From Novosphingobium sp. (GTDB lineage: Bacteria > Pseudomonadota > Alphaproteobacteria > Sphingomonadales > Sphingomonadaceae), in assembly GCA_025356575.1 (NCBI GenBank), contig JANXSP010000095.1, forward strand, positions 1,503 through 65,502: a stretch of DNA of 64,000 nucleotides, written 5' to 3'. Position 1 is the first letter of the stretch, and each line of letters opens with the position of its first letter. This document shows positions 1,916 through 59,716 of this stretch, piece by piece. Under the pieces are notes generated by a model that had not been told where the DNA came from, ran no database searches, and worked only from the letters and a program-made list of their open reading frames with translations. Both the position numbers and the translations under genes were made by a program.

Positions 1916-3363
1916 CGCATCAGCACCAGTTCCTCCGCCATCGAGGGATGGAGCGCAACCGTCGCATCGAAATCCGCCTTGGTCAGCCCGGCGCGCACCG
2001 CGATCGCCGCGGCCTGGAGGATCTCGGGCGCCTCGGGTCCGATCATGTGCAGCCCCACGACCCTGTCCGTCGCGGCATCGACGATCATCTTGTAGAGCCC
2101 GCGTTCGTGGCGTCCGGCGAAGACGTTCTTCATCGGGCGGAAGTCGGACGAAAACACCTTGATGCTGCCAAGCGTTTCGCGCGCCTGACCCTCGGTCAGC
2201 CCGACGCCCGCGAGCGGCGGCTGCGAGAAGACCGCGCTGGGGATGAAATCGTAGTCGATGCTGCGCGGATTGTCCCCGAACACGGTGTCGGCGAACGCCT
2301 GGCCCTCGCGGATGGCGATCGGGGTAAGCTGGACGCGGTCGGTGACATCGCCCACCGCGTAGATGCTTTTGCACGATGTCCGGCTGAATTCGTCGACGGG
2401 GATTTCGCCCTTGAGCCCAAGCTTGATCCCGACCTTGTCGAGCCCGAGCCCATCGGTATTGGGCTTGCGTCCCGTAGCGACCATCACGAGGTCGGCGCAG
2501 AACGGGTCGTGGCCCGCCAATGTCACTTGAAAGGTCCCGTCCTCGTTCTTCGCGACGCTGTCGAACGGGCAGTTGAATTTGTACTCGATCCCGCGCGCCA
2601 TCGTGATCTGGAGCAACCGGTCGCGCAGGCTTTCGTCATAACCACGCAGGATCGCATCGCTGCGGTTGACGACGGTGACGTGGCAGCCGAGCGCGTTGAA
2701 GATGCCCGCGAATTCGAGCGCGATATAGCCCGCGCCCGCGATCACCACGCGCTTGGGCAACGATGGCAGGTGGAACACTTCGTTCGAGGTGATGCAATGT
2801 TGCGCGCCTTTGAATTCGGGGATCACCGGCCATGCGCCCGTCGCCACCAGAATGGTCTTGGCGGTATAGGTCTTGCCGCTGGCGAGCTTCACCGAATTGG
2901 GACCGGTGATCGTCGCGCGCTCAAGAAACCGCTCGACCCCGTGGCTTTCGAGAGTCGTGGTATATGCCGCGTTGAGCCGGTCGACATCGCCGAGCACGGT
3001 ATCGCGCAGCACGTTCCAGTCGAAGCTCAGCTTGCCGATGGTCCAGCCGTAATGCGCCGCGTCCTGCAGTTCCTCGGCGAAGTGTGAGCCGTAGACGAGC
3101 AGCTTCTTGGGCACGCAGCCGCGGATGACGCAGGTCCCGCCAATGCGGAACTCCTCGGCCACCGCAACCTTGGCACCGTGCGCCGCGGAAACGCGGCTGG
3201 CGCGGACCCCGCCAGAGCCTGCTCCGATGACGAACAGATCGTAGTCGAACGCGGGTTTTTTGGCGGCCGGAGATTTCGACGAGGACGCCGGCTTCGTGGG
3301 GGGAGCGGGCTTCCTGTCGGGAGCCGGCTTCTGGGCGACTTTCGGCTTCTTGGCGGCGGGCAT
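1912..3363 (-). CDS. gor: glutathione-disulfide reductase with a ~38-aa Lys/Pro/Ala-rich N-terminal extension
   Basis: FDYDLFVIGAGSGG FAD motif, GGTCVIRGCVPKK redox-active disulfide, C-terminal HPSMAEELV. AGGAG lies 6 nt upstream of the ATG at 3363. Confidence 0.9.
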   Translation of the reverse strand: MPAAKKPKVAQKPAPDRKPAPPTKPASSSKSPAAKKPAFDYDLFVIGAGSGGVRASRVSAAHGAKVAVAEEFRIGGTCVIRGCVPKKLLVYGSHFAEELQDAAHYGWTIGKLSFDWNVLRDTVLGDVDRLNAAYTTTLESHGVERFLERATITGPNSVKLASGKTYTAKTILVATGAWPVIPEFKGAQHCITSNEVFHLPSLPKRVVIAGAGYIALEFAGIFNALGCHVTVVNRSDAILRGYDESLRDRLLQITMARGIEYKFNCPFDSVAKNEDGTFQVTLAGHDPFCADLVMVATGRKPNTDGLGLDKVGIKLGLKGEIPVDEFSRTSCKSIYAVGDVTDRVQLTPIAIREGQAFADTVFGDNPRSIDYDFIPSAVFSQPPLAGVGLTEGQARETLGSIKVFSSDFRPMKNVFAGRHERGLYKMIVDAATDRVVGLHMIGPEAPEILQAAAIAVRAGLTKADFDATVALHPSMAEELVLMR

Positions 3364-16788: not shown

Positions 16789-17991
16789 CTAGCGCAGACT
16801 GACCACGTTGTCGCTGACCCGCGGGTCGCGGCGATTGCCGAGGTACTGGCTCGCCATCGGCTCGTCGCCAACCTCGACCACGACCGTCTCGCCGAAACCG
16901 TTGAAGCTCGTCTTCATCGCCGCCCCATACGCGCCGAGCATCCCGATCTCGATGAAGTCGCCCGCGGCGATATCGCTCGGCAGATCGAACGGACCCTTCA
17001 TGTAATCGGCGTCGTCACACGTCGGCCCGTAGAACGCGAACTCGGCAGTGGCCAACCCTCGATCGTCGCCAAGGTATTTGACCGGGAAGCGCCAGCCGAC
17101 ATGCGCGGCGTCGAACAGCGCTCCGTAGGCGCCGTCATTGATGTACAGCTCGTCGCCGCGGCGCTTCTGCACGCGCACGACCAGCGAGTTGTATTCGGCG
17201 CACAGCGCGCGGCCCGGCTCGCACCACAGCTCGGAAGAGTACGAGATCGGCAGCGATTCGGACGCCCGGTGGATCGCGCCGAAATAATCCTCGAGCGGGG
17301 GCGGTTCCATGCCCGGGTAGATCGAGGGGAAGCCGCCGCCGACGTCGATGATGTCGACCGTAACCGCGGCATCGACGATCGCGGCGCGCACGCGCTCGAT
17401 CGCCTGGACATAAGCGAACGGCGTCATCGCCTGGCTGCCAACATGGAAGCAGATGCCGAGCGCATCGGCGACCTGGCGCGTGGCCTGGAGCAGCGGCGCG
17501 GCATCGACTAGATCGACCCCGAACTTGGCGGCGAGGCTCAGCTCCGAATATTCCGACGACACGCGCAGGCGGACGCACAGGTACAGGTCGGTCGCCGCGA
17601 TCCCGCCGACGGTAGTCGCGGTGACGATCTTCTCGAGCTCGTCGATCGTGTCGAGGCTGAACACGCGCACGCCGTGGACCGTATAGGCCTCGGCAATCGC
17701 ACTGGCGGTCTTGACCGGGTGCATGAAGCACAGCGTCGCCTGCGGCAGCGCGGCGCGGACAAGGCGCACTTCGGCGATCGAGGCGACATCGTAATGCGTG
17801 ATTCCCGCATCCCACAGCACCCGCAGCAGATCGGGCGACGGGTTGGCCTTGACCGCATAGAGCGACTTGCCCGGGAACTTCTCCACGAAGAACCGGGCAG
17901 CGCGCGCAGCAGCCTGCGGACGATTGAGAATTACGGGTTCGTCGGGCGCAAGCGCCCGAACTACAGCCGATGCGTCAGGATGGATGTGCAA
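16789..17991 (-). CDS. ornithine/lysine decarboxylase (alanine-racemase-fold, group IV PLP-dependent decarboxylase)
   Basis: LYAVKANP (PLP lysine), HVGSQ, GGGFP and EPGRAL motifs. TTG start as in the track. Confidence 0.85.
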   Translation of the reverse strand: MHIHPDASAVVRALAPDEPVILNRPQAAARAARFFVEKFPGKSLYAVKANPSPDLLRVLWDAGITHYDVASIAEVRLVRAALPQATLCFMHPVKTASAIAEAYTVHGVRVFSLDTIDELEKIVTATTVGGIAATDLYLCVRLRVSSEYSELSLAAKFGVDLVDAAPLLQATRQVADALGICFHVGSQAMTPFAYVQAIERVRAAIVDAAVTVDIIDVGGGFPSIYPGMEPPPLEDYFGAIHRASESLPISYSSELWCEPGRALCAEYNSLVVRVQKRRGDELYINDGAYGALFDAAHVGWRFPVKYLGDDRGLATAEFAFYGPTCDDADYMKGPFDLPSDIAAGDFIEIGMLGAYGAAMKTSFNGFGETVVVEVGDEPMASQYLGNRRDPRVSDNVVSLR

Positions 17992-18132
17992 CTCAAGGGA
18001 CCCCCAAAGATCGTTTCAACAAGCTGCCTTGCGGTATGGAAGTCCCCTAGGGGCAGCGGAGGGTCGCTATAAGGACGGGTAGATTAATCGCAAGTGAAAA
18101 GGGGCCAGCTGCCGTCCCGAAACGGGTGGACC

Positions 18133-19380
18133 TCAGGACGTTCGGACCAGATGCTCGGCCAGCGCCTGATACGCGGGCAGCGATGCCGGATCGTTGCCCC
18201 CGTTGGCGGCCACCGGGTGTGAGGCGAAGCGCGCGATCGTCATTTCGGCGGCGGGGTCGACATGGATCGTCTGGCCGTGAATCCCGCGCCCGCTGAAGGT
18301 GCCGTGCGCGTTGTGGCTGACCCACCACTGGCCGCGGTACGACCAGCCCCGAAGCAACGGGAAGTCGGCTTTGGCAAAGTGCGCGGGATCGCCGCCGCCG
18401 CGAATATCGGCGATCACCGCCGCGGGAATGATCTGGCGGCCATCGACCAGCCCGCCCAGCCGCATCGCTTCGCCCATGCGGGCGAAGTCGGCGAGCACCG
18501 GGCACAGCCCACCGCCGGTGAACGGCATCCCCGCCGAATCGACCACGATATCGGCATCGCCTTCCATGCCCAGCGGCTGCCACAACCGCGCGGACAGCAC
18601 TTCATGGCAGCGCTTGCCCTCGATCCGCGCGATGATCCAGCCGAGCACTTCGGTGTTGACCGTGCGGTAGGTGAACGCCTCGCCGTGGGTGCCAAGCTTT
18701 TTCACCGCGGGAATGAAGCCGTACATATCGGTCGGCCCGGCGTACTGCGGCGGGCGCGGGGTCAGCCCGAGCGCGTTGCTGAACGCGCCGATGCCCGAGT
18801 TGGGATCGGTGTAATCCTCCGAATAGTCGAGCGCGGTGGTCATATCGAGGACGTGGCGCACGGTCGCGTCGGCGAACCCGCTTCCCGCCACTTCGGGCAG
18901 GTATTCGAGCACCGGTGCACCGGGATCGAGCTTGCCTTCGGCGATCAGCATCGCCGCGATCGTGCCGAAGAAGCTCTTGGTCACCGAGAACGCGATGTGG
19001 CGGGTCTGCGGCGTGGTCACCCCGAACCAGCGTTCGTACACAACCGTGCCGCGGTGGAGGACGAGGATCCCGTCAGTGAAATTGGCAGCGAGCGATTCGC
19101 TCCAGGTCATCTGCGCGTCGCCGCCCAGCGGGGCAAACGTCACCGCATCGAGATCATCCCGCAGCGCGCGCGGCAGCTCGGTGATCGTGCCCGTGCGCCG
19201 CCCGACCCGAGCGGTCGGCACGAATTCGCGCATGTGCGAGAACGCGTAGCGCGTCATCGGGAACCGCATGTGATCGGCGCGCGCGGCCAGGATGCGCTTG
19301 TCGGGCGCCGGAGGCAGCCCGTCCATCCAGCCCATCGCCGCGGGATCGCTGGTGACAGCGTCGAGGATCGTATCGGACAT
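18133..19380 (-). CDS. beta-lactamase-fold serine hydrolase (6-aminohexanoate-dimer-hydrolase-like)
   Basis: SVTKS (SxxK) and YRTVNT (YxN) motifs. 415 aa. Confidence 0.75.
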   Translation of the reverse strand: MSDTILDAVTSDPAAMGWMDGLPPAPDKRILAARADHMRFPMTRYAFSHMREFVPTARVGRRTGTITELPRALRDDLDAVTFAPLGGDAQMTWSESLAANFTDGILVLHRGTVVYERWFGVTTPQTRHIAFSVTKSFFGTIAAMLIAEGKLDPGAPVLEYLPEVAGSGFADATVRHVLDMTTALDYSEDYTDPNSGIGAFSNALGLTPRPPQYAGPTDMYGFIPAVKKLGTHGEAFTYRTVNTEVLGWIIARIEGKRCHEVLSARLWQPLGMEGDADIVVDSAGMPFTGGGLCPVLADFARMGEAMRLGGLVDGRQIIPAAVIADIRGGGDPAHFAKADFPLLRGWSYRGQWWVSHNAHGTFSGRGIHGQTIHVDPAAEMTIARFASHPVAANGGNDPASLPAYQALAEHLVRTS

Positions 19381-19392
19381 GGGTTTCGGCTC

Positions 19393-20670
19393 CTAGCTCA
19401 GTCGGTCGCGAAAGTCGGCGTAGCCGAAGCGCTTGACGCATTCGAGGCTGTCATCGGCGCTGTCCCATAGCCAGATCGAAGGCAGCGGGACGCCGTTGAA
19501 CGTGGTCGTCTTGACCATCGAATAATGCGCCTGGTCGAGAAACGCGAAACGCTGGCCGGGGACGGGCGGCGCGGCGAAGCGGTAATCGCCGATGACGTCC
19601 CCCGCGAGGCATGAGGGCCCGCCGAGGCGGACGGTAAGCGCGTTATCGCCTGAGGTCCCCGCCTGCGCGGGGACGCGGCTGGCTATAATGTCCCGCTCCC
19701 CCGCGAAGGCGGGGGCCTCGGGCGGGAAGTCACCACCCCCGGCCTCACCCAGCATCGCCGGGCGATACGGCGCCTCGATCACATCGGGCATGTGGCACGT
19801 CGCGGAAATGTCGGTGATCGCGAGGTGCATCCCATTACTGCCGGTATCGAGGACGGTGCCAACGAGGATCCCCGCGTCCAGCGCGACCGCCTCGCCCGGC
19901 TCGAGATAGATCTCACACCCGGTTTCGGCCTTCACCCGGCGCAGGAACGCGATCAGTTCGTCGCGCTGATAATCGGACCGCGTGATATGGTGGCCGCCGC
20001 CGAAGTTGAGCCACTTGAGCTGCGGCAGCCACCGCGCGATCCGCGGCTCGAGCGCCGCCCAAGTCCGTTCGAGCGGGGCAAAATCCTGTTCGCAAAGCGT
20101 GTGCAAGTGCAGCCCGTCGACCCCTTCCATATGTTCGTCGGCGAGTTGGTCGACCGGAAACCCGAGCCGGCTGTGCGGCGCGCATGGATCGTAGCGGGGA
20201 ACCTCGCCCTCGGCGTGGAGCGGGTTGATCCGCAGCGCGACGTCGAACACATCGCCGCCCGCCCGCGCCAGTGCGAGCTGTGGGAGGAACCGTTCGAGCT
20301 GGCCCGGAGAATTGAAGATCAGGTGGTCGGAAATCCGGCAAATTTCGGCCAGGTCCTCGGCTTTATAGGCCGCGCAATATGTCGCGATCTCTGCCCCGGA
20401 ACTAGAAACATAATGCTCTGCCGCGAGCAGCGCTTCCCACAGCCCCGAGGTGCAGACACCATCGAGATAGTCGCCCACCAGCGGCGCCACGCGCCACATC
20501 GAAAACGCTTTGAGCGCGGCGAGCACCTTGATCCCCGCGCGGTCGCGGACATCGGCGAGGATCGCGAGATTGGCGCGCAGCTTGGCGGCATCGACCACGA
20601 AAGCGGGCGAATCGACGCGGGCCAGGTCAAAGGTTGCGAACGCGCCCGGGTCGCCGGCTCTGGTTTCCAT
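19393..20670 (-). CDS. nspC: carboxynorspermidine/carboxyspermidine decarboxylase carrying an in-frame REP-like insertion
   Basis: SPAFVVD...LAALKAF, NFGGGHHITR, EPGEAV, PYRP...LGGPSCLAGD, FNGVPLPSI...FGYADF. Likely start is ATG 20670 (TGATG overlap with the upstream stop). Confidence 0.85.
   Translation of the reverse strand: METRAGDPGAFATFDLARVDSPAFVVDAAKLRANLAILADVRDRAGIKVLAALKAFSMWRVAPLVGDYLDGVCTSGLWEALLAAEHYVSSSGAEIATYCAAYKAEDLAEICRISDHLIFNSPGQLERFLPQLALARAGGDVFDVALRINPLHAEGEVPRYDPCAPHSRLGFPVDQLADEHMEGVDGLHLHTLCEQDFAPLERTWAALEPRIARWLPQLKWLNFGGGHHITRSDYQRDELIAFLRRVKAETGCEIYLEPGEAVALDAGILVGTVLDTGSNGMHLAITDISATCHMPDVIEAPYRPAMLGEAGGGDFPPEAPAFAGERDIIASRVPAQAGTSGDNALTVRLGGPSCLAGDVIGDYRFAAPPVPGQRFAFLDQAHYSMVKTTTFNGVPLPSIWLWDSADDSLECVKRFGYADFRDRLS
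19648..19725. repeat. REP/BIME-like double-hairpin element, copy A (intragenic, within nspC)
   Basis: GCCTGAGGTCCCCGCCTGCGCGGGGACGCGG...CTCCCCCGCGAAGGCGGGGGCCTCGGGCGG. It has two GC hairpins in inverted orientation. Confidence 0.85.
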
Positions 20671-21875
20671 CAGAACCCCAGCGGCCCGCCGAGTTCCTTG
20701 ACCTGCCACGGCAGCCCTTGGCTATTGAGCATGTCCATGTACGGATCGGGATCGAGCTGTTCGATGTTGAACACGCCCTCGCCGCTCCACACCCCCGTCA
20801 GCATCAACGCGGCGCCGATCATCGCGGGGACGCCGGTAGTGTAGCTGACCGCCTGGTTGCCGGTTTCGGCATAGGCCTCCTCGTGGTCGCAGATCTGGTA
20901 GATGTAGAACGTGCGCTCTTCGCTGTCCTTGAAGCCGGTGGCGATGTCGCCGATGTTGGTCTTGCCCTTGGTCGTGGCACCCAGCGACGAAGGTTCGGGC
21001 AGCACCGCCTTGAGGAACTGCAAGGGCACGATCTCGCGCCCCTCGTACATCACCGGGTCGATCCGCGTCATGCCGACGTTCTGGAGCACGGTGAGGTGCT
21101 GGATATAGGCATCGCCGAAAGTCATCCAGAAGCGGATACGCTCGATCTCGGGAAGGTGTTTCGAGAGGCTCTCGAGCTCCTCGTGGTACATCAGGTACAT
21201 GTTCTTCGGGCCGACGCCCTCGAACGCGAACTCCTGTTTGATCGCCATCGCCGGGGTCTCGACCCATTTGCCTGCCGACCAGTGGCGCGCCGGCGCGGTG
21301 ACTTCGCGGATGTTGATCTCGGGGTTGAAGTTGGTCGCGAACGGCTGGCCGTGGTCGCCGCCGTTGCAGTCGAGGATGTCGAGCGTGCGGATCGTGTCGA
21401 GCTTGTGCTTCTTGAGCCAGGTCGCGAACACGCTGGTGACCCCGGGATCGAACCCCGATCCAAGCAGCGCCATCAGCCCCGCTTCCTTGAACCGGTCGTG
21501 GTAGGCCCACTGCCACTTGTACTCGAACTTGGCTTCCTCGCGCGGTTCGTAGTTGGCAGTGTCCATATAGTTGACCCCCACCTCGAGGCAGGCGTCCATG
21601 ATGTGGAGATCCTGGTACGGCAGCGCGAGATTGACGACGAGTTTGGGCTCAAGCTGGCGGATCAAGGCGACCGTGGCGGGGACATCGTCGGCATCGATGG
21701 CATGGGTGGTGATCGTCTGCCCGGTCCGCGCCAGCACCGATTCGGCGATCGCATCGCACTTCGCCTTGGTGCGGCTGGCGAGCGCAATCTCGCTGAAGAT
21801 CGGCGCGTTCATCGCCATCTTGTGGACCGCGACCGAGCCGACACCGCCCGCTCCGATTACCAGAACCTTTGACAT
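20670..21875 (-). CDS. carboxynorspermidine synthase (saccharopine dehydrogenase family)
   Basis: MSKVLVIGAGGVGSV Rossmann start; strong resemblance to the CANSDH family. Real ATG at 21875 within track ORF 20670..21944. Confidence 0.85.
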   Translation of the reverse strand: MSKVLVIGAGGVGSVAVHKMAMNAPIFSEIALASRTKAKCDAIAESVLARTGQTITTHAIDADDVPATVALIRQLEPKLVVNLALPYQDLHIMDACLEVGVNYMDTANYEPREEAKFEYKWQWAYHDRFKEAGLMALLGSGFDPGVTSVFATWLKKHKLDTIRTLDILDCNGGDHGQPFATNFNPEINIREVTAPARHWSAGKWVETPAMAIKQEFAFEGVGPKNMYLMYHEELESLSKHLPEIERIRFWMTFGDAYIQHLTVLQNVGMTRIDPVMYEGREIVPLQFLKAVLPEPSSLGATTKGKTNIGDIATGFKDSEERTFYIYQICDHEEAYAETGNQAVSYTTGVPAMIGAALMLTGVWSGEGVFNIEQLDPDPYMDMLNSQGLPWQVKELGGPLGF

Positions 21876-21906
21876 TCTCACTCCAGAATTTGACGGACCG
21901 TTGCTT

Positions 21907-21981
21907 CCTCGCGAAGGCGGGGACCTCGGGCGGCCATGGACCACCAGGTGGCCGGAGGTCCCCGACTGCGCGGGGACGCGG
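21907..21981. repeat. REP/BIME-like double-hairpin element, copy B (intergenic, units in swapped order)
   Basis: CCTCGCGAAGGCGGGGACCTCGGGCGG-N18-CCGGAGGTCCCCGACTGCGCGGGGACGCGG. Confidence 0.85.
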
Positions 21982-22006
21982 TGTGGTCGCGCTTTAGGAC
22001 ATCACG

Positions 22007-57717: not shown

Positions 57718-57742
57718 CGCTAAAATCAAATGCCGCAACGGC

Positions 57743-57816
57743 GTCCCCGTGCAGGCGGGGACCTCGTGAAGTCAGATCAGACCTCGCCGCCTGAGACCCC
57801 CCCTGCGCGTGGGAGC
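57743..57816. repeat. REP/BIME-like element, copy C (intergenic; second unit degenerate)
   Basis: GTCCCCGTGCAGGCGGGGACCTC ... TGAGACCCCCCCTGCGCGTGGGAGC. Confidence 0.7.
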
Positions 57817-57835
57817 AGTGAGTGCTGGCCAGCGC

Positions 57836-59577: not shown

Positions 59578-59589
59578 TCCCTACCCGCC

Positions 59590-59716
59590 TGAAGTCCCCG
59601 ACTTCGCGGGGAAGCAGCAAAGTAGAAGCAAAGATCAGTGCTCCCCCGCGCAGGCGGGGGCCTCAAGCGTGATGGCTTGACCGCCGCCCGAGTTTCCCAC
59701 CTTCGCAGCGAAGCGG
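59590..59716. repeat. REP/BIME-like cluster, copy D (three hairpin units in alternating orientation)
   Basis: TGAAGTCCCCGACTTCGCGGGGAAGC-N25-CTCCCCCGCGCAGGCGGGGGCCTCA, followed by a degenerate third unit GCCCGAGTTTCCCACCTTCGCAGCGAAGCGG. Confidence 0.8.

Follow-up and report, generated by a model that had tools for sequence, protein, structure and literature searches.

A translated CGTC-1 palindromic repeat in the nspC gene of a Novosphingobium and the apparent recurrence of palindromic inserts in the same protein loop

A 64,000-nt stretch of Novosphingobium sp. DNA (contig JANXSP010000095.1; hereafter the window) contains a gene for carboxynorspermidine/carboxyspermidine decarboxylase, nspC, whose coding sequence includes an inverted pair of repetitive extragenic palindromes (REPs). 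The 78-nt dimer lies in frame and is part of an intact open reading frame (ORF). It very probably represents a CGTC-1 REP dimer that was inserted into nspC and is carried as a tolerated passenger in a permissive loop of the enzyme. Palindromic repeats were found in the same loop in other Sphingomonadales; with the window included, the insertions number at least about seven, are apparently independent and come from three repeat families.

A REP dimer is part of the nspC coding sequence

The host gene and the parts of the element are located as follows:

19393..20670, minus strand: nspC, carboxynorspermidine/carboxyspermidine decarboxylase, 425 aa, with ATG at 20670; the mechanical ORF reaches GTG at 20709
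19647..19724: REP dimer of the CGTC-1 type, 78 nt, defined by inverted arms, fold, translation and a length equal to 26 codons
19648..19678, plus strand: REP unit 1, core match with 0 mismatches, nhmmer E = 5.6e-8
19679..19692: spacer of 14 nt, AT-richer, read as GACATTATAGCCAG on the coding strand and holding a rare ATA codon
19693..19723, minus strand: REP unit 2, core match with 1 mismatch, nhmmer E = 5.6e-7

An earlier note, made from the letters of this DNA, had described two GC-rich hairpins at 19648-19725 and had taken them for an inverted doublet of the REP or bacterial interspersed mosaic element (BIME) type. Re-reading of the plus strand gave exact agreement with its letters, and both hairpins were recovered. 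Unit 1 forms an 8-bp stem, GTCCCCGC/GCGGGGAC (19655-62 / 19667-74), around the 4-nt loop CTGC, and unit 2 a 7-bp stem, CCCCCGC/GCGGGGG (19698-704 / 19709-15), around the 4-nt loop GAAG. The doublet is borne out by the 32-nt arms at 19647-19678 and 19693-19724, which are 84% complementary with 14 nt between them, and by the fold. As single-stranded DNA the element reaches -37.5 kcal/mol (z = -5.3), a value matched by 0 of 200 shuffles, and as mRNA -85 kcal/mol (z = -4.7). Single units measure 31-32 nt and have about 80% G+C. Unit 1 carries the tag GACG at 19672-19675 (reverse complement CGTC) and the tail GCCTGAGG, and the tag of unit 2 is degenerate (CGCTC). The tagged ends face inward, which Di Nocera et al. 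(2013) term TT. Nine matches to the 22-nt core, GAGGYCCCCGCCTKCGCGGGGA, occur in the window at no more than three mismatches, against 0.01 expected from shuffled sequence. A scan of the nspC element against Rfam gave no match, and a terminator and promoter scan of the element returned nothing, including no terminator-like site.

The insert forms a segment of a variable loop

Within NspC the element is translated as PPEAPAFAGERDIIASRVPAQAGTSG. Its 78 nt code for 26 residues of the alpha9/beta12 loop, namely PEAPAFAGERDIIASRVPAQAGTSG with the residues that flank it, and the peptide segments across the insert are FPPEAPAFAGER and DIIASR. Two of the three frames of the coding strand are open through the element. 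The in-frame position with an open ORF, as put forward in the earlier note, thus holds, and so does its remark on the ATA codon, which lies in the spacer and belongs to a codon class used 19 times among 13,057 codons (25 window ORFs). Measured from EAPYRP to RLGGPSCLAGD, the loop comprises 43 aa in the window and mostly 12-22 aa in about 190 relatives, in a comparison of 120 homologous proteins and 80 genome loci at species level; the insert accounts for the additional length, in line with the excess of about 25 residues over a usual 20 or so that the note had given. The ortholog alignment proposed there showed that close relatives lack the segment: proteins with 74-80% overall identity have loops of 12-22 aa without palindromes. 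When the window protein is aligned with HMMER to the structure 9eaf, query residues 327-349 remain unmatched and both halves of the protein align around them. Because of these palindrome-free loops and this alignment, the insert is, judged from the sequences, derived and not ancestral. The common 21-22-aa loops were also checked for decayed REP remnants, but no convincing palindromes were found in them, and the idea that they are old REPs was dropped for this reason.

An AlphaFold2 (AF2) model from a 150-sequence alignment, which included C-terminal fragments, had a mean predicted local distance difference test score (pLDDT) of 77.7 and a predicted template modelling score (pTM) of 0.80. A first model was rejected; it was based on 47 sequences, all at least 80% identical, and had a mean pLDDT of 63 with the C-terminal domain below 50. 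In the retained model a helix at 294-298 (HMPDV) and a strand at 302-304 precede the loop, residues 314-340 are coil with pLDDT below 50, and a further strand follows at 345-351. Foldseek aligned the model to 9eaf with template modelling (TM) scores of 0.75/0.85; over 9eaf, 3n29 and 3mt1 together the scores were 0.70-0.86. The paper on the Clostridium leptum enzyme (9eaf) describes alpha9/beta12 as one of two variable regions in the family, with a 27-aa insertion in the enzyme of Akkermansia muciniphila and one of 6 aa in C. jejuni (PMC11866407). The loop joins the specificity helix and not the dimer interface, which both insertions leave undisrupted (PMC11866407). Based on the modelled coil position and on this published variability, the insert is placed in a known permissive, surface-type variable loop, which answers the structural mapping suggested in the earlier note. 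The insertions in Akkermansia and C. jejuni occupy the same position as the one in the window. For those, however, no repeat origin was reported, whereas the window insert is a recognisable dispersed palindromic repeat.

The insert-carrying gene is under purifying selection

By full-length similarity the ORF 19393..20709(-) is a member of the NspC/carboxyspermidine decarboxylase (CASDC) family and a predicted enzyme; it matches the solved structures PDB 9eaf (E = 1e-111) and also 36gy, 3n29 and 3mt1. Both the GGPxCLAGD motif with the catalytic Cys and the HMPDV specificity helix have been kept, C354 and H293-D296 are among the invariant alignment columns, and the conserved catalytic motifs continue after the insert in the intact ORF. 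The PF00278 domain scores 24.1 bits in the window protein, just above the cut-off of 23. Among relatives, many have a precomputed PF00278 hit and many have none, and loop length does not separate the two groups cleanly.

Two metagenome contigs from two different samples (L081 and L082) are 98.9% identical to the window in DNA over about 20 kb and therefore belong to the same species. In L081, nspC contains the same dimer and a third REP unit, which adds 42 nt (14 codons) and keeps the frame; this three-unit allele was assembled from both samples. The nspC genes of the window and L081 differ by 34 synonymous and 7 non-synonymous changes (dN/dS 0.064, the ratio of non-synonymous to synonymous divergence). 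By this ratio, nspC is under purifying selection while it carries the insert, and the disruption of the gene that the earlier note had named as an outcome speaking against its reading is contradicted by the ratio together with the intact ORF. Within the insert of L081, two units have each lost a stem pair through a single substitution, and both substitutions change the residue (P to T, V to D), as is expected for unconstrained sequence.

Repeat copy number in the loop is polymorphic within this one species, with two units in the window and three at L081:10990-11075 (also in L082). Five of the 42 positions of the third L081 unit are different in the copy next to it, so the unit is not a fresh duplication; the window allele corresponds to a precise loss of the first L081 copy. 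Differences between the nspC alleles (window 19393-20670, L081:10001-11320) cluster at codons 4-27 and 174-192, and the 5' 1 kb of the gene is 96% identical compared with 98.9% in the flanks. The clusters suggest recombination tracts from a more divergent allele.

Palindromic repeats recur in the same nspC loop

Palindromic inserts in the alpha9/beta12 loop were found in the following nspC loci:

Window and L081: CGTC-1 dimer, tags inward, 14-nt spacer
L011, L023 and L086: CGTC-1 dimer, tags outward; in L011 12 nt between stems, units abutting
L084 and L052: CGTC-1 dimer, tags outward, 30 nt between stems
L085: CGTC-1 dimer, tags outward, strongly decayed, 33 nt between stems
L015:3936-4047: second palindromic family, 26-nt and 15-nt inverted arms, 62-aa loop
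L083:1484-1563: third palindromic family, 33-nt arms, 38-aa loop

By eye, the units of L023 and L086 abut as in L011. All insertions found in the loop are in frame, and carriers make up 4 of the 80 species-level loci. In a neighbour-joining (NJ) tree calculated with the loop left out, the carriers are scattered and each stands beside insert-free alleles, including the pair of window and L081 as well as L015. For four alleles independence was assessed by dN: the distance to the insert-free sister is 0.036 for L084 (sister L008), 0.037 for L011 (L021), 0.070 for L023 (L036) and 0.077 for L052 (L079), and the distances between carriers are 0.107-0.22. At synonymous sites the carriers differ by 51-59% (dS 0.86-1.18), yet their REP cores stay within 0-3 of 22 positions of the consensus, so the units are not neutral relics of one ancient event. 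A single ancient insertion common to all carriers was rejected, both for the scatter of carriers among insert-free sisters and for the differing arrangements, with tags inward or outward and spacers of 12, 30, 30 and 33 nt. At least about seven insertions thus appear to be independent; this count is conservative, as L011, L023 and L086 were taken as one event.

The 7-13 kb of L011, L023, L052 and L084 contain no CGTC-1 copy besides the one in the loop. All six tags-outward dimers (L011, L023, L052, L084, L085 and L086) are read in the same frame, giving ..GGDL.. and then ..PAFAG.., and the Arg-rich frames are never used in this acidic loop. This bias has a probability of about 0.004 if the events are independent and all frames equally tolerated, and of about 0.04 with four events. 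The inner distances of L011, L084, L052 and L085 (12, 30, 30 and 33 nt) are multiples of three.

Several further observations concern these loci. At L052:3957-4036 substitutions have occurred in pairs (CCCAGC/GCTGGG and CCCCTGC/GCAGGGG), so that the hairpins of both units are preserved; the cause would be either a REP variant specific to the lineage or selection for the hairpin. The core hairpins of the second and third families read CCTCCCCC..GGGGGAGG plus GCTGACGGAGGGGGC in L015 and CCCCTCCCC..GGGGAGGGG in L083; hairpins like the latter occur at three L015 sites outside the nspC loop (2887, 2962 and 5697). A protein search with a 100-aa query centred on the loop added two cases, P0122 and P0138; it returned only fragments of at most 175 aa, missed known full-length carriers and is no census. 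A metagenome scan for the left junction, GGTGACTTCCCGCCCGAGGCC, gave two hits, both unrelated chance matches.

The repeat belongs to a described family

REPs are grouped into GTAG-tagged and CGTC-tagged superfamilies (Di Nocera, De Gregorio and Rocco, 2013, BMC Genomics 14:522; PMC3733652). CGTC-1 repeats have a terminal CGTC (variants TGTC and CCTC are allowed), an 8-bp stem, a 4-nt loop and a short tail of about CCA. They form mostly intergenic inverted dimers and are concentrated in Alphaproteobacteria, with Sphingomonas, Sphingopyxis, Erythrobacter, Sphingobium and Novosphingobium among the hosts (PMC3733652). Dimers with tags outside (HH) predominate and those with tags inside (TT) are rare for CGTC repeats, which "apparently lack a dedicated transposase" (PMC3733652). 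The units of the window share the tag, the stem and loop (GCAG/GAAG and complements), the dispersed inverted dimers and near-identical encoded peptides with this family. Their tail, CCTCAGGC / CCTCGGGC, is conserved among copies and longer than the 3-nt CCA known from the text description. Judged by this description and by the encoded peptides, the nspC element matches CGTC-1, in the TT arrangement that is rare for the family.

In-frame intragenic CGTC-1 copies were already tabulated for S. wittichii, S. alaskensis and E. litoralis, as singletons, dimers and groups encoding 8-80 aa (Additional file 3 of PMC3733652). The tabulated peptides include VVPAKAGTSLGQSAKTNEIPASAGMT in GlyS of E. litoralis, AAPAFAGAT and VAPAQAGA in S. 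alaskensis and further VVPAKAGTS...EIPASAGMT, EIPAFAGMT and RHPREGGDP (PMC3733652). In the window VPAQAGTSG resembles VVPAKAGTS and VAPAQAGA, and PEAPAFAGE resembles AAPAFAGAT and EIPAFAGMT; in related alleles FPREGGDLG resembles RHPREGGDP. The novelty that the earlier note had implied for translated GC-rich REPs of Alphaproteobacteria therefore does not stand, and the nspC case is a new instance of a published phenomenon. NspC is not listed among the decorated genes of the 2013 study, whose supplements give 0 hits for "decarboxylase". Recurrence was described there at the same site only for Xanthomonas recB, and in the same gene for truB and dnaE2; a series across many lineages and several repeat families in one loop is not described in that study. 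The one addition made here is the recurrence of palindromic inserts in one nspC loop.

The note's comparison with the Rickettsia palindromic elements (RPE) proved closer than an analogy, since R. conorii RPE-6 has been classed as CGTC-1 and RPE-4 as CGTC-4 (PMC3733652). RPEs are palindromic repeats inserted in frame at surface-compatible sites of genes that stay functional (Ogata et al., 2000, Science 290:347), and in these respects the window element is alike. RPE-1 is described as 105-146 nt long with long palindromic arms and AT-rich, in the reduced genomes of obligate intracellular bacteria, whereas the window element is a 78-nt dimer of 31-nt units with about 80% G+C in a free-living-type sphingomonad. 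It lacks the characters of RPE-1, and its kinship with RPEs runs only through RPE-6. With REPINs (Bertels and Rainey, 2011; PMC3116915) and the BIMEs of E. coli it shares a design of inverted REP pairs with a short spacer that form one long hairpin, and the multi-copy, mostly extragenic occurrence. REPINs, in contrast, are of the GTAG type and tied to the REP-associated tyrosine transposase (RAYT), and the units in the window carry CGTC instead.

Further copies in the window

A nhmmer profile of the units added two degenerate copies to the nine core matches, giving 11 units in five clusters. All clusters are dimers or a trimer. Placement with a gene map based on G+C at third codon positions (GC3) and with the ORF lists of the window showed that only the nspC cluster is intragenic (1 of 5), while the others are located between high-GC3 ORFs. 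All four additional clusters pointed out in the earlier note are thus real and intergenic according to core scan, nhmmer and gene map:

21902..21982: dimer, tags outward, in the spacer from which the carboxynorspermidine dehydrogenase gene and a PALP-family gene start in opposite directions; also present in L081
51336..51411: dimer, tags inward
57739..57819: dimer, tags outward, second unit degenerate
59586..59716: trimer, third unit degenerate

The CGTC tag can be read directly in the units at 21955+ and 57744- too. The two intergenic tags-outward dimers have an inner distance of 33 nt.

Origin of the insert and alternative explanations

Under the explanation that we favour, the source would be a dispersed, non-coding and presumably mobile repeat family of Alphaproteobacteria. 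The insertion would have survived as its 78 nt are a multiple of three and the frame used is free of stops, and as it landed in the naturally length-variable alpha9/beta12 loop of the C-terminal beta-barrel domain. With the frame kept and the loop variable, the result would be a flexible surface excursion of 26 residues on an enzyme that keeps working. We infer from the sequences that the protein is made and active; the insert would be neutral or slightly deleterious and no functional module, with selection only keeping the frame open and excluding disruptive peptides. Stem breaks in L081, decay in L085 and the lack of an Rfam match or terminator-like site agree in giving no sign of selection on the insert itself. 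Recurrence would follow from a selection filter: REPs may insert at any place but be retained only where they are in frame and the loop is permissive, which is the simplest and most likely account.

Some points weigh against a mere passenger. The function of NspC in the window is argued wholly from sequence conservation. The same loop was hit repeatedly in other lineages, with six tags-outward dimers in one frame, which could indicate more than passive tolerance, and a hairpin of about -85 kcal/mol in a coding mRNA could plausibly affect translation or decay. In addition, the loop alignment with sister alleles is too diverged to give insertion boundaries or a target duplication, and even the closest allele without the insert shares only about 80-86% of its protein sequence.

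About seven or more in-frame insertions of three families, with one frame for the six tags-outward dimers and with near-consensus units although the synonymous sites of the host genes are close to saturation, raise the broader idea that alpha9/beta12 of NspC is a recurrent landing pad, where the loop on the specificity helix is remodelled beyond passive tolerance, be it through a hotspot or through selection on frame or RNA. We regard this as unlikely. A targeted hotspot, in which palindromic repeats integrate preferentially into the DNA of this loop, could explain why dimers occur here in six loci besides the window and L081 together with the families of L015 and L083, why L084, L011, L023 and L052 all lie nearer to a sister without the insert than to other carriers, and why in these four the loop copy stands alone in its surroundings. 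Positions within the loop and inter-unit spacers nevertheless differ by lineage, no target motif shared among the insertions was identified, and three unrelated families speak against one sequence-specific mechanism. Loop length is variable in distant taxa as well, and also where no repeats are present, so that a selection filter suffices, and the observed fraction of carrier loci fits a modest enrichment at a permissive site. A hotspot therefore seems improbable to us. Co-option, in which the insert was recruited for a role in RNA (translation pausing, mRNA protection) or for tuning substrate choice through loop length, is a more doubtful proposal still. The very stable mRNA structure, the attachment of the loop to specificity helix alpha9 (PMC11866407), the common GGDL/PAFAG frame with unused Arg-rich frames, the paired substitutions in the stems of L052 and the near-consensus cores at high synonymous divergence of the host gene would all suit it. 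But the insert is dispensable, as insert-free alleles exist for every carrier with an identified sister; stems are broken and residues changed in L081, and the L085 copy has decayed. Purging of basic peptides explains the frame bias equally well, and the bias counts as only four events if L011, L023 and L086 share an origin; near-consensus cores are also expected from recent independent insertions. Frame bias and the paired changes in L052 are both compatible with peptide purging and lineage-specific REP variants. Insertion into many unrelated host proteins has moreover been taken as an argument against functional constraint (Di Nocera et al., 2013; PMC3733652). Finally, the segment might not be an insertion at all but an ancestral lineage-specific loop that resembles REPs by chance, or part of a decaying pseudogene, for which the intrinsic variability of the loop in length and composition across the family could be cited. 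This is extremely improbable and was rejected: it is refuted by the number of near-exact core copies against the shuffled expectation, by the complementarity of the arms, by relatives that lack the segment and by the low dN/dS in an intact ORF with its catalytic motifs conserved after the insert.

Taken as a single case, the tolerated REP dimer adds nspC to the existing 2013 catalogue of translated CGTC-type REPs in Sphingomonadales. For annotation it means that "extragenic" repeats can lengthen predicted proteins, and that such an insert may weaken Pfam domain calls. The replicated series of independent insertions, of a polymorphism of two versus three units and of decayed copies in one defined loop of an enzyme with solved structures offers a convenient system for studying how proteins absorb selfish DNA and whether such DNA seeds loop evolution beside an active-site element. 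If the landing-pad idea were true, the loop would provide a natural replicated series for an idea of Claverie and Ogata, reportedly that new protein loops can arise from inserted palindromic repeats.

Gene neighbourhood

The start of nspC is likely the ATG at 20670 (METRAG...), as the start was called there in the near-identical (95%) protein P0001. It abuts the stop of the gene directly upstream, in an operon-like arrangement:

20670..21875, minus strand: carboxynorspermidine dehydrogenase (saccharopine dehydrogenase family), Pfam PF03435 and PF16653; the L081 gene call agrees

Both genes are part of a polyamine cluster (window 16789-21875; L081:8339-13924) that continues after nspC with a gene for a beta-lactamase-family protein (18133-19380), followed by a gene (window 16789-18015) that is assigned to the Orn/Arg decarboxylase type by the Pfam annotation of near-identical L081. 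A single degenerate CGTC-1 unit was seen in another species just upstream of nspC (L049:2911-2932, nspC start at 3001), located at the 3' end of the dehydrogenase gene or just past that end. In L081 a 452-nt AT-rich insertion (L081:9547-9998) separates the dehydrogenase stop from the nspC start, whereas the two genes abut in the window (~20670). It contains a small ORF with a hydrophobic helix at its end (ITVLVLLIIAAYFWIAL) and has the appearance of a small gene that was gained recently and now splits the operon.

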